Part shown: piece by piece, positions 53,001 to 60,200 of the stretch
Layout: the number at the start of each line of letters is the position of its first letter
How positions within the stretch are numbered: position 1 is the stretch's first letter
NCBI GenBank assembly: GCA_051362555.1
Contig: CM120640.1
Coordinates: forward strand, 61,978,788 to 62,042,787
DNA length: 64,000 bases
Reading direction: 5' to 3'
Origin: Lingula anatina
Lineage: Eukaryota > Animalia > Brachiopoda
The notes under the pieces: generated by a model
The model's database searches: none
Told to the model about the DNA's origin: nothing
The model's input: the letters and a program-made list of their open reading frames with translations, nothing else
Program-made: the position numbers and the translations under genes

Positions 53001-56000
53001 ATTATTTCCACTACTTGATGGTGGTTAAAATGGTTGTACCAGTATATATATAACAGTGATTAACAACAAATTTTGTTCTCTTGTCTAAGCCTGTTAAATT
53101 ACTGTGAACATGACACTAATTGTAACCTGCCTTTGGCATGAAAACTTAATTATCATCTATTATTGTGTCTCCAGACTCAAGTCTTCTTCAGCAGTGGAAC
53201 AACCCTTCCCATTCCAAAGTGTTGTAAGCCATGCATGACTGACAGAGAAGAGATTGCAGATACAAAACGGAGTCTACATGTATTGGTAAATGAGTGCACC
53301 AGAGCTGTTGCTAGTGAGAGGAAGCCAACGAAGTCAATTCTGAGAGACATTAGACAGATGCAGCTCAATGGTTTGTAATTGCATTTAAGCTATTTAAATG
53401 TTATCTTAATGTTTGATGAATGTATGTAGACTCATAAACATGATAAGATAATAAAACTTGACGCGTGAGAAAAGCCCAAGCAGTAGGTCATATATTTTCC
53501 AGTTTACATGTGAAGAGGCACGTGAAAGCTAAGTAAAATTTATATAATTAAAAAAAATATTAAGTATTTTTGCTTAGCTTGGACCGCATTCACAACAAGT
53601 TGAGCCATGGCTCTACAAATCCACGAACTAAATATGGCGGACGTACATGAAAGAAAAAACGCCTAATCTTTTAATAGTCTCTCTGCCTCTCACACGCCTC
53701 CCCATGTGTCGTCCCAATGGAGCCGAGATTTAATGCCTGTACCCCGCAAGGATGACGCATGGGGAGGCGTGTGAGAGGCGGAGAGACTATTAAAAGATTA
53801 GGCGGTTTTTCTTTCATGTATGTCCGCCATATTTAGTTCGTGGATTTGTAGAGCCATGGCTCAACTCGTTGTGAATGCGGTCTTAGACCACATTTTAACT
53901 CTCCATGAGATATTATTATAAAATGATTTTAGTTCAATATAGGATGGATATGCCATAGATGGGAAAATGTAATTGTTTATGTATTTCTGCAAATTTTCTC
54001 ACCTTCCTTGAGAAGCATTTCTCATAGGTGTTAAATTGATGCCAGTATCTGTATGATACAGTGCATTCAAGTTAATGAAAACTCTCATTTTGACAGAGCA
54101 CCTCATAGTTAAGAAATTGTATCAAATCACTTTGTAAATCAGTCATTTGATATTTGTTTTGCAGTACATCACAGGCATGACACTATGTTGTATGCAGTTA
54201 TCAATGAAGATTCTGACCATGGTTATATGAACACAGATGACAGGTCTATCAGTACAGATAGACAGTGGTGTAAACTGATTCTGGATGAGCTGAGCCAAGA
54301 GGCAGCAGATGTGGCCAAACCTTTGAAAAGACCACCTACCAGACAGCTTGTCATACCACCAAGGGTTGGAAGTAGAGAGCCGCAATTACCGAAAGCAGTG
54401 CCTAGGCATACCACAAATGATAACTCTAGGTGAGTAATTTGAGTAAAGAAAATCCTTTTGACCTTTTATAAAGATTTTTTTCAAAAGTTACAAATTATTC
54501 CCTTGTTCCAATTTTTTTTTTTTTTTTTTTTTGGGGGGGGGGGGGGTGGAAGATGGAGATTTGTAGACTGGTAAATCCCCTTGTTGTGAACACAAGCAGA
54601 CTCTCACAATATATTTAAGTGATGTTATTTGAGTTTTAGTGATGACCTGGTGGATGGCAGTGCACACCCAGTCATATTTATGTCCCAGAGACCGTTGCCT
54701 CCTACCCCAGGAACATTAAGAAAGCTGAAATGGAAGGACCTGATCATTGATAGAACTAAAGTTCTGGGTGCTGTAAGTATATTTATGAAAAAAAGTGAAT
54801 AAAAAATAATAAGTGTTTTATTTTTTTTTAATTGTAACCAGTTTTGATAGTTTTAATGTAGAAATTATTAAGCTGAGCTTGTGATTTGCTTTTTTTGGAA
54901 ATATTGGTAATGTTAAAATATTTACGTGAATACAATAAGTTGATTATGTAGATTTAGAATCATGTTTTGTGACAACTTGTTTTTATTTGTATAAATATTT
55001 GAAGCAAATATTGATAAAGTAAGATGAATGGGCCATTGAAATATATGCTAGGTGTGAGTCTGGTCAATCATTTTTTTTTTCTTTTTTCTTATATACAGGG
55101 TCATTATGGATGTGTATACCTGGGCAGATACAAACCTGAAAATAGGATGGTTGCTGTAAAGCAATTGAAGGATGACCAAAAAGATTATGAGGCTTTTTTT
55201 CATGAAATGAAAATAATGAACAAACTAAATCACCCAAATGTGGTCAACATGATTGGGGCCACTAGAGATTCAAAAGATGCACATGGTTTGTTTCTTTTTT
55301 ATTTACAGTCCAAAGATTATAGAAGCATACTTTTTAACATAACATTTTTTAAAAATCTCAATGCCAAGTTTTGGAAAAGAAATTTTAAATCAAGAATGTT
55401 TTATGTAAATGTGTTAGCTGTTGACAAAAAGTTTATATATTGGCATTACGTCCCCCACTTTGCTTTACAAATATATACCAACTTGGCCACCAGAGTGCAA
55501 AATTTTTAGTTGGTCAGGGATTTTTATGGTAAAATTTTAGGCTGCCTTGTATTTTCTCCTTGTGTCAGTTTTAGATTTTGCATTGATATAGAATTTTGTT
55601 TAATATATTGTGATTTTGTAAATATGCCTTTCAGATGAAATCTATTTGGTTATGGAGTTTGTAGGAAATGGGACAGTCATGAAGTACATAGAACAGCGGA
55701 AGCCTGATGATCATCAGTTAACAAAATTGTCAAGAGACATTGCTGAGGTAGGCTCTTCATGGTTGCAACATGCCCTGCGAGTTATTATAGAATGCTTGCA
55801 ATTACATAAAAGATATTTCTGATCATTCGTGATCATCATGGCAAGATACTGTATAAATTATGCTATAAAAACCATGGTGTTAAAGTTATTCATTGAAAAT
55901 GTCAACTCCTTAACAATCCACCAAATCTTTTAAACAAAGTCAAGTAAAATATGTGTAGTTCTCTTGCTGTTAAATTGATTATGAATAGTTTAATTCAGTG

Positions 56001-59000: not shown

Positions 59001-60200
59001 CATTTTCCGGCAAATTCAATAAAGACGTTTCCGACAACCGACTTCGTTGGGGGTGGTGTTTTTTTTTTTTTTTTTTTTTTTGAGAACGGACGAAAATCGG
59101 TGCGCGCGCAGGATGTCATCCATAAAAATAAAAAAGTGTGGCCTTATTTATAAAATTTGTTTCACAGGCCCATGGGCAAGAGAGGTTCAGGGGATTCAAG
59201 TGAACCCCCTTTTAAGCTAGGAAAACTATGTTTGAATTGATATTCGATGTATATGTATTCTATACCATTATGGACAAAAGGTCCATGAGATCACACAAAG
59301 AACCCCATGTGAAATTGCTGTTTACAGGCCTCTTTCATAAATGAGAAAGAAAGAAAAATAAGAAAAAGAGTATCTTTCTAGGTAAGACCATGTAAAAGGA
59401 ATCAAATTTTCAAGTGTATGCAACAATATAAATAAGAGACAGGAATGCAATTCTCTTCACAGGGTATGCAGTACCTACATGTCAGCAGGATTATACACCG
59501 TGATTTAGCAGCTAGGAATGTGCTGGTTACATTTGACCAGAGGGCTAAAATTACTGACTTTGGCTTGTCAAGACAGAGAGAGGAGTCCGTCTATTACTAT
59601 GTTGCCAAGTCCAACAGGGCTGTCAATCCCTACTGGTAATAACACCTAGCTAGTACATTTAGTATGTGTTTATAGCAAGTAGTGGTAATGGCATCTGTTG
59701 ATTAGATACCTGTTCATTTATCAAAAAAAAAAAAAAAAGGAACCAGCATGTTCTTCCTTTTAAAGTTGGTTTTTCATCCTGTTTTTCACTGGATCATTGT
59801 TACGCCTTAGAAACTATAACATTATTTGTTGACTTATTCCATATTCAGGTACAGTCCAGAAGGGATAGATCCACATAATCCCAGATTTGCCTCCCGGTCA
59901 GATGTATGGAGCTTTGGTGTGGTGCTCTGGGAAATATTTAGCGTTCATGATGTCATAGACACATATGACTCAGAAATATTACGCCAGAAGCTGGTTCCTG
60001 ATGTGGAAAACAAGAATACTGTGGTTGGATTAAGACTACTGCTTGGAAAAAAATGGCGACTGCCTATTCAACCACAGTGGCCAGAAGAAATTAAAAAATT
60101 GATGCAAGATTGTTGGAGGTATGAAAGAAAAGAGCGCCCCCATTTTGACCAGATCAAGGAATCTTTGGAAGACCTCGTTTCTAAATTATATTTGGTTTAA
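44026..60200 (+). CDS. JAK: Janus kinase with FERM, SH2-like, pseudokinase and two tandem tyrosine kinase domains (about 1574 aa)
   Basis: Exons 44026-44814, 45294-45407, 47623-47780, 48001-48320, 48516-48674, 49370-49497, 49707-49919, 50115-50266, 52709-52847, 53175-53370, 54165-54429, 54640-54772, 55099-55285, 55635-55747, 56143-56315, 56478-56924, 57415-57592, 57749-57956, 58184-58311, 59463-59635, 59849-60200; total 4725 nt, all GT-AG and phase-consistent. [50 protein letters not shown]2: [25 protein letters not shown]. Two kinases, each with [16 protein letters not shown] and DFG. An extra upstream coding exon cannot be excluded. Confidence 0.92.
45814..47446. mobile_element. Non-autonomous hAT5-like DNA transposon, copy 2 (JAK intron), with nested MITE at 46935-47171
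   Basis: Same TIRs and body as 1350-2985, with a different 5-bp TSD, CATTT. Confidence 0.9.
49051..49250 (-). mobile_element. Decayed short HINE-like element
   Basis: Reverse-complement similarity to 17125-17362 (GACCTCTGCCAAG, ATAATTGATT, CACCACCAAAA, CAGACAGACAA). Confidence 0.55.
50394..52046 (+). mobile_element. Helentron-associated element, copy 2 (JAK intron within the pseudokinase domain)
   Basis: Same 5' hairpin and 3' end as 14354-17916; longer (GTCGCC)-type microsatellite; about 2 units of the 161-bp repeat and about 2 of the 335-bp repeat. Confidence 0.82.
53582..53882. mobile_element. Foldback MITE, about 300 bp with arms of about 130 bp
   Basis: GACCGCATTCACAAC..GCCTCCCCATG arm repeated in inverted orientation with few mismatches. 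Confidence 0.85.
57093..57305. mobile_element. Decayed Tc1/mariner-like MITE in the intron between the two kinase modules
   Basis: CACTTGACCAATAAAGTTTGGAAACA vs reverse complement CACTCAACCAAAAAATAGTTTGGAAACA; TA on the right flank. Confidence 0.55.
57620..57672. repeat. (CA)n microsatellite
   Basis: CA run in a JAK intron. Confidence 0.95.
58362..59143. mobile_element. Non-autonomous PIF/Harbinger-like element in a JAK intron
   Basis: About 34-bp TIR GGCCACACTTTTTTATTTTTATGGATG(C/A)CATCCT, TTA TSD on both sides. Confidence 0.88.

Follow-up and report, generated by a model that had tools for sequence, protein, structure and literature searches.

Canonical JAKs (JAK1-3, TYK2, and Hopscotch) carry a FERM domain, an SH2-like domain, the pseudokinase JH2, and the tyrosine kinase JH1, in this order, and the four-part layout has been regarded as invariable in animals ranging from sponges to mammals. 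In their accessible parts, two papers describe JAKs with FERM, SH2, and no more than two kinase folds (PMC3296744; PMC13203501). The same order of domains is found in a JAK gene of the brachiopod Lingula anatina, located in a stretch of 64,000 nucleotides (assembly GCA_051362555.1, contig CM120640.1, positions 61,978,788 to 62,042,787 of the forward strand; hereafter, the window). In comparison with the canonical JAKs, however, the Lingula protein has a second JH1-derived kinase domain, a longer proline-rich linker between JH2 and the first kinase domain (K1), and no P+1-loop proline in the second kinase domain (K2). Here we show that this protein is a real, expressed variant of the JAK family and that its layout is less unique than first thought: it seems to have been gained on two occasions, and the substrate site of the distal domain changed in parallel. 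The third fold in Lingula and bivalves departs from the layout regarded as fixed, and JAK-STAT signaling in these animals may be wired unlike the models used to interpret their immunity.

In mammalian JAKs, as presented in the available portion of PMC10180219, JH2 inhibits JH1 in cis, and receptor dimerization relieves this inhibition. The meeting of two JH1 domains for mutual activation-loop phosphorylation is described there as a small, transient contact involving αG and αEF.

A study that includes Lingula and Crassostrea draws JAK domains in a figure (PMC13203501), and, as far as the available part of that paper goes, this figure may show the third fold without the authors remarking on it. 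We found no account of a three-fold JAK in the open-access literature; subscription journals, the usual place for bivalve JAK cloning, were outside this search. The public protein models of three-fold JAKs carry ordinary JAK names. The original prediction, made from the letters of the window alone, knew of no description of the architecture. The layout was already present in a RefSeq model of Lingula and in models from bivalves.

A JAK gene encoding a pseudokinase and two tyrosine kinase domains

We rebuilt from the sequence a JAK gene of 21 coding exons on the forward strand, which form a single open frame and are separated by introns with GT-AG boundaries throughout (Table 1). A search with exon 1, whose named matches are JAKs, retrieved XP_013399489.1 ("tyrosine-protein kinase JAK2 [Lingula anatina]"), a model of the same length that differs from the window translation at 5 residues. 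The Pfam search on the 1574-aa protein detected FERM_F1 and FERM_F2 above the curated cut-offs, a weak SH2 match (cut-off 21 bits), and three PK_Tyr_Ser-Thr stretches. The best PDB match, mouse JAK1 (7T6F, E 3e-97), aligned across FERM, SH2-like, JH2, and JH1, with the SH2-like region and JH2 of the Lingula protein each placed on the corresponding JAK1 region. The protein therefore shows the FERM domain, the SH2-like domain, the degenerate JH2, and a JH1-type kinase of JAK descent that mark the family; in place of a single C-terminal JH1, it has two JH1-derived domains.

Each of these two domains is encoded by a module of five exons. Intron positions and phases (2,0,1,0,2) are the same in both modules, the HRD exon is 173 nt long in each, and a phase-2 intron of 490 bp lies between them. 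K1 occupies the JH1 position, adjoining JH2, and is separated from K2 by a linker of ~77 residues. The LGxGHYG motif, the VAVK Lys, the αC Glu, HRDLAARN, DFG, a tandem YY in the activation loop, SDVWS(Y/F)G, and a C-lobe insert are present in K1 and K2 alike. Each module begins with an RPLPPxP motif within linkers that are otherwise unalignable; we take these motifs to fit the class I SH3-ligand consensus, presumably with a corresponding function. The exon model, Pfam, the RefSeq model, and the spliced reads described below together bear out the predicted succession of a pseudokinase and two tyrosine kinase domains in one JAK, and the exon structure and kinase motifs of the modules agree with the prediction.

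Table 1. Positions of the JAK gene, its parts, and neighboring genes in the window.
Feature	Position	Strand	Basis
JAK gene, FERM - SH2-like - JH2 - K1 - K2, 1574 aa	44026..60200	+	exon model, RefSeq XP_013399489.1, Pfam
Exons 1-3 (44026-44814, 45294-45407, 47623-47780), JAK-type FERM region	44026..47780	+	Pfam FERM_F1 E 9e-17, FERM_F2 E 2e-11
Exon 4, SH2-like domain	48001..48320	+	Pfam SH2 E 1e-4, 22.6 bits
Exons 5-10, pseudokinase JH2, aa 497-792	48516..53370	+	HGNIRCRN and DPG instead of HRD and DFG; exon 8-9-10-11 joins in reads
Exon 11, proline-rich JH2-K1 linker	54165..54429	+	exon model, reads
Module 1, exons 12-16: tyrosine kinase K1 (aa 903-1192) and Ser/Pro-rich tail	54640..56924	+	all junctions in reads; 44/48 conserved JH1 positions
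RPLPPTP motif ahead of K1	54689..54709	+	sequence
Intron 16, 490 nt, phase 2, between K1 and K2	56925..57414	+	13 spliced reads, 4/4 runs
Module 2, exons 17-21: tyrosine kinase K2, aa 1269-1572	57415..60200	+	exon model; exon 17 covered, exon 17-18 join in reads; 47/48 conserved positions
Exons 17-21 of module 2	57415-57592, 57749-57956, 58184-58311, 59463-59635, 59849-60200	+	
RPLPPEP motif ahead of K2	57509..57529	+	sequence
Asn1455 codon, in place of the P+1-loop proline in K2	59625..59627	+	alignment to tyrosine kinases
Multi-exon gene, leucine-rich repeat and IQ motif	about 3668-13621	+	domain search
Exon matching CCDC28	21805-22047	-	domain search
Single-exon open reading frame, 438 aa, cytochrome b5 and fatty acid desaturase domains	37804-39117	+	domain search

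Transcripts join the two kinase modules

Reads from four RNA runs (X1, X4, X7, and X2, from three studies; four of the nine runs listed), each sampled at ~6-25%, were aligned to positions 52600-57610. The reads crossed all of the junctions between exons 9 and 17 as well as the exon 8-9 join, and the stranded runs indicated RNA from the forward strand. The junction between K1 and K2 (56924/57415), which the original prediction had singled out for an RNA check, was spanned by 3, 1, 6, and 3 reads in X1, X4, X7, and X2, respectively. The seven other junctions examined had 7-19 reads each. The read depth in the middle of intron 16 was 0-0.16, so a stop just inside this intron is rarely reached by read-through. 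Eight reads in X4 continued from exon 17 to exon 18; the K2 junctions beyond exon 18 are based on splice signals, the open frame, and the RefSeq model.

These data bear on whether the layout is an artefact, produced either by an assembly duplication or by the merging of a separate neighboring kinase gene during prediction, to which we assign a negligible probability. A single brachiopod protein model with the three-fold layout was found among the matches listed, a point in favor of an error. However, the spliced K1-K2 reads came from all four runs and all three studies and refute this reading; in addition, exon 17 starts mid-codon behind a normal acceptor, and the RefSeq model has the same layout despite its 5 different residues. 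An assembly duplication is ruled out by the divergence of the modules: the identity between K1 and K2 is 42% (122 of 291 columns), no direct repeat shared by the modules exceeds 58 nt (coding DNA, 78%), and their introns, predicted not to align, gave short chance blastn matches only.

The modules might instead be alternative cassettes, such that most functional protein would be an ordinary JAK with K1, K2, or a K1/K2 chimera, which we consider improbable. The phases at equivalent boundaries are equal, leaving all of the skips 11-17, 12-18, 13-19, 14-20, and 15-21 in frame, and two Crassostrea virginica models resemble such products: P0438 stops after K1, and P0439 joins JH2 straight to K2. These models could be real isoforms, paralogues, or mis-models. 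Against cassettes, no exon 11-17 joint was listed at a threshold of 3 reads in the four runs over 52600-57610, compared with 12 reads for the 11-12 joint; the other four skips end outside this interval. The number of reads at the 16-17 joint is also within the range of the other junctions, and intron 16 is nearly uncovered.

Over the aligned interval, run X7 departed from the window at many coding sites, with differences that seemed fixed and that X1, X2, and X4 lacked. Among the 40 of 73 differences that were listed, 11 fell in the K1 domain, of which 8 were silent and 3 conservative. The pattern resembles that of a cryptic species, or of a divergent population, sequenced under one species label.

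Origin of the second kinase domain

In two kinase trees, K1 and K2 fell among the JH1 domains of JAKs, with moderate deep support. They were sisters both in a 43-row tree (96/86), where they adjoined the single JH1 of the annelid Owenia, and in a 46-row tree with more lophotrochozoans (99/95). In the latter tree, their branch lengths were similar (0.83 for K1 and 0.71 for K2). The identities at codon positions 1, 2, and 3 were 55, 66, and 34%, and 12 of 45 four-fold sites were identical, which corresponds to the chance level (27% expected; proportion of synonymous differences, pS, 0.80). The ratio of nonsynonymous to synonymous substitution rates (dN/dS) between K1 and K2 is undefined, as dS is saturated.

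Shared peptides had been proposed as signs of the duplication. RDIAEGM, WPxEI, and the αC pattern were exclusive to K1 and K2 among the 46 rows. The VLxTFDxxAKI peptide was also found in the single JH1 of Owenia, and a peptide of this type (VLVTFDxRAKI) is thus by itself no proof of duplication.

We defined a conserved set of 48 columns, using conservation in 90% or more of 23 single JH1 domains as the threshold; the individual domains keep 44-48 of these positions. K1 keeps 44 and K2 47. The retention of conserved positions while silent sites became saturated indicates long purifying selection on both domains. The tree, the introns, and the silent-site saturation suggest that the JH1 exon block was likely duplicated in tandem within the gene long ago and has been kept since. 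The original prediction, in which selection retained an old duplication within the gene, is accordingly supported, because K1 and K2 are sisters in both trees, the four-fold sites are at chance level, the frame and 47 of the 48 positions survive in K2, and the modules are spliced together.

Three-fold JAKs in bivalves

We searched with the K1-K2 region, with a Dreissena match, and with the first 1191 residues against cluster representatives (best 150 listed). The matches and their cluster members comprised 459 proteins, and 307 of them had a JAK-like N-terminus by our own profile. Among these 307 proteins from the matches listed, 254 had two kinase folds and 26 had three. Two of the three-fold proteins were dropped. 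P0115, a sturgeon model, has a split JH2. P0056, the Shark isoform X2 of Culicoides brevitarsis, is one unverified model of a non-receptor tyrosine kinase with three tandem tyrosine-kinase folds; unlike the Lingula JAK, it has an SH2-ankyrin-SH2 N-terminus without FERM or JH2. The remaining set, among the matches listed, consisted of the Lingula protein and 23 models from nine bivalve genera (Dreissena, Mya, Mercenaria, Mactra, Potamilus, Sinanodonta, Argopecten, Mytilus, and Crassostrea), so that the suggested proteome search for the FERM-SH2-PK-TK-TK arrangement did recover further proteins.

The bivalve models have the layout of the Lingula protein (FERM - SH2-like - JH2 - kinase - kinase, 1350-1780 aa), and their distal domain often lacks the P+1 proline. 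They differ in that their K1 and K2 form a clade of their own, in that HCD, HSD, or HGD replaces HRD, and in that they are known as database gene models. The K1-K2 linker in these models has 11-224 residues and is shortest in seemingly incomplete ones. No third fold was found in the JAK models of the gastropods Patella, Aplysia, and Bradybaena, the nemertean Tubulanus, and the annelids Owenia and Paralvinella, which are single, possibly truncated models. No other brachiopod sequence with a JAK kinase region was found among the matches listed. The closest relative of the Lingula JAK among these matches was P0377, a JAK FERM fragment of 267 aa with 47% identity.

The replacement of HRD was observed in all 18 bivalve JAK tyrosine-kinase domains examined (P0176, P0184, P0186, P0285-P0288, P0436, and P0437). 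These domains are non-RD kinases, which suggests that their activation may be less dependent on loop phosphorylation.

The 18 bivalve kinase rows formed one clade in the 46-row tree (96/84), with one two-fold sequence inside. Forcing the Lingula K2 together with bivalve K2 domains was rejected by the approximately unbiased (AU) test, both with 4 of 43 rows (p 0.0073) and with 10 of 46 rows (p 0.0075). These tests reject one ancient duplication shared by Lingula and bivalves. As the simplest reading of the trees, the extra domains were likely gained independently in the two lineages, the second gain apparently in the ancestor of the farmed bivalves (oyster, mussel, scallop, and clam). Gene conversion between the tandem domains could mimic separate origins.

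The P+1 loop and possible roles of K2

The sole loss from the conserved set in K2 is the proline located three residues before the P+1-loop Trp, which is replaced by Asn1455. K1 keeps this proline. It is present in each of the 36 rows of the tree set that are not K2, and, among the 254 two-fold JAK-like proteins, in 219 of 219 JH1 domains scored by pattern. Of the sequence features of an active tyrosine kinase, K1 has the Gly loop, the Lys, the αC Glu, HRDLAARN, DFG, and the P+1 proline, and K2 has the same features without the P+1 proline. The initial description of the two domains as intact holds for the catalytic motifs of both but not for the P+1 loop of K2. The substrate site of K2 is predicted to be altered, and among the functions suggested for the second domain, a split of substrates gains sequence support from this loss.

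The P+1 proline was missing in seven of the nine bivalve distal domains and kept in all nine bivalve K1 domains; the seven domains are related and do not represent seven independent events. In the heteroconch distal domains, the catalytic-loop Arg was lost or changed in five of six (HCDLTAEN, HGDLTSKN, HGDLTSSN, HCDLTAKN, and HGDLTASN), and 36-41 of the 48 conserved positions were kept. The distal domains can be arranged as a series, from the canonical form (scallop and oyster) through the loss of the P+1 proline (Lingula and mussel) to the additional change of the catalytic-loop Arg (most heteroconch clams). Such a series could show a tandem kinase copy specializing or becoming a pseudokinase, the step that is believed to have made JH2.

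Our tentative preference is for an expressed JAK in which K1 would serve as the JH2-restrained receptor/STAT kinase, and K2 as a second kinase, tethered and catalytically competent, that would prefer other substrates. As in other JAKs, receptor dimerization would free K1 from JH2. K1, from the same or the partner molecule, would then phosphorylate the three activation-loop tyrosines of K2 across the flexible linker. K2 would be switched on second and, having a remodeled P+1 loop and a separate proline-rich motif for docking, would phosphorylate different targets. RSK and MSK, which have two kinase domains in one chain with one activating the other, may serve as a working analogy for this proposed relay. 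Unlike the Lingula JAK, they are Ser/Thr kinases of two groups, with no tandem tyrosine kinase copy and no pseudokinase.

The available part of PMC10180219 describes a contact between JH2 and JH1 in mouse JAK1, Asp675-Arg872. The equivalent residues in the Lingula protein are Asp599 in JH2, probably Lys910 in K1, and Ser in K2, and serve as a weak marker of JH2 coupling. Also in favor of the preferred reading are the spliced K1-K2 transcripts, the constraint on K2 and its branch length similar to that of K1, the P+1 proline kept in K1 but lost in K2, with the same contrast in most bivalve models, the position of K1 beside JH2, and the mostly silent differences of run X7 in K1.

Several points weigh against this division of labor between K1 and K2. 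Conservation of the Asp-Arg contact does not extend across the invertebrate JAKs, and its placement in K1 could be off by one residue. The P+1 proline seats the substrate tyrosine in tyrosine kinases, and its loss from K2 could equally lower activity. Furthermore, short reads cannot show all 21 exons on one molecule.

The loss of this proline also fits another reading, possible though unlikely, in which K2 is an incipient second pseudokinase that binds ATP and folds but has little tyrosine kinase output and serves chiefly as a scaffold or allosteric partner, retracing the presumed origin of JH2. The changed catalytic-loop Arg and the reduced conservation of the heteroconch distal domains point in the same direction. 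However, the Lingula K2 retains the Lys, the αC Glu, HRD with its Arg, the Asn, DFG, and the activation-loop tyrosines despite the silent-site saturation, whereas the true JH2 in the same protein shows the decay expected of a pseudokinase (HGN and DPG).

K2 might also act on K1 instead of the reverse. As a built-in partner, it would phosphorylate the K1 activation loop in the same molecule, replacing or priming the encounter of two JAKs on a dimerized receptor; we regard this as doubtful. The contact required between two tyrosine kinase domains is small and transient (αG and αEF; PMC10180219, available portion), the K1-K2 linker is in principle long enough, and an altered P+1 loop could suit a single dedicated substrate. 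Conversely, the retention of FERM, SH2-like, and JH2 implies receptor control, an unrestrained partner of this kind would keep the enzyme permanently active in the absence of a separate inhibitory control, and the linker lengths vary widely among the bivalve models. For activation without receptor dimerization, a function raised in the original prediction, the support is confined to geometry. Even more doubtful is the broader proposal that brachiopods and bivalves separately evolved a JAK with its own activation partner, for which two receptor-bound JAKs would be dispensable and in which the P+1 proline would have been lost convergently as the distal domain specialized for this single task. 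The three-fold JAKs provide a natural test case of whether or not JAK trans-activation takes place within one chain.

Other features in the window

Domain searches located parts of three further genes (Table 1), and the multi-exon one among them, which has an IQ motif and a leucine-rich repeat, is presumably CEP97-like. Two introns of the JAK gene carry inverted repeats. In the K2 intron labeled intron 19, positions 58361-59144 are bounded by 40-nt terminal inverted repeats that are 93% complementary and 704 nt apart, resembling a miniature inverted-repeat transposable element (MITE). This K2 intron is longer than its K1 counterpart because of the MITE-like insertion. In intron 10, positions 53582-53882 contain 133-nt inverted arms, 95% complementary and 35 nt apart. 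Reads that derive from other copies and bear foreign flanks align here in large numbers; the element is a MITE-like hairpin that exists in multiple copies and occurs in transcripts.

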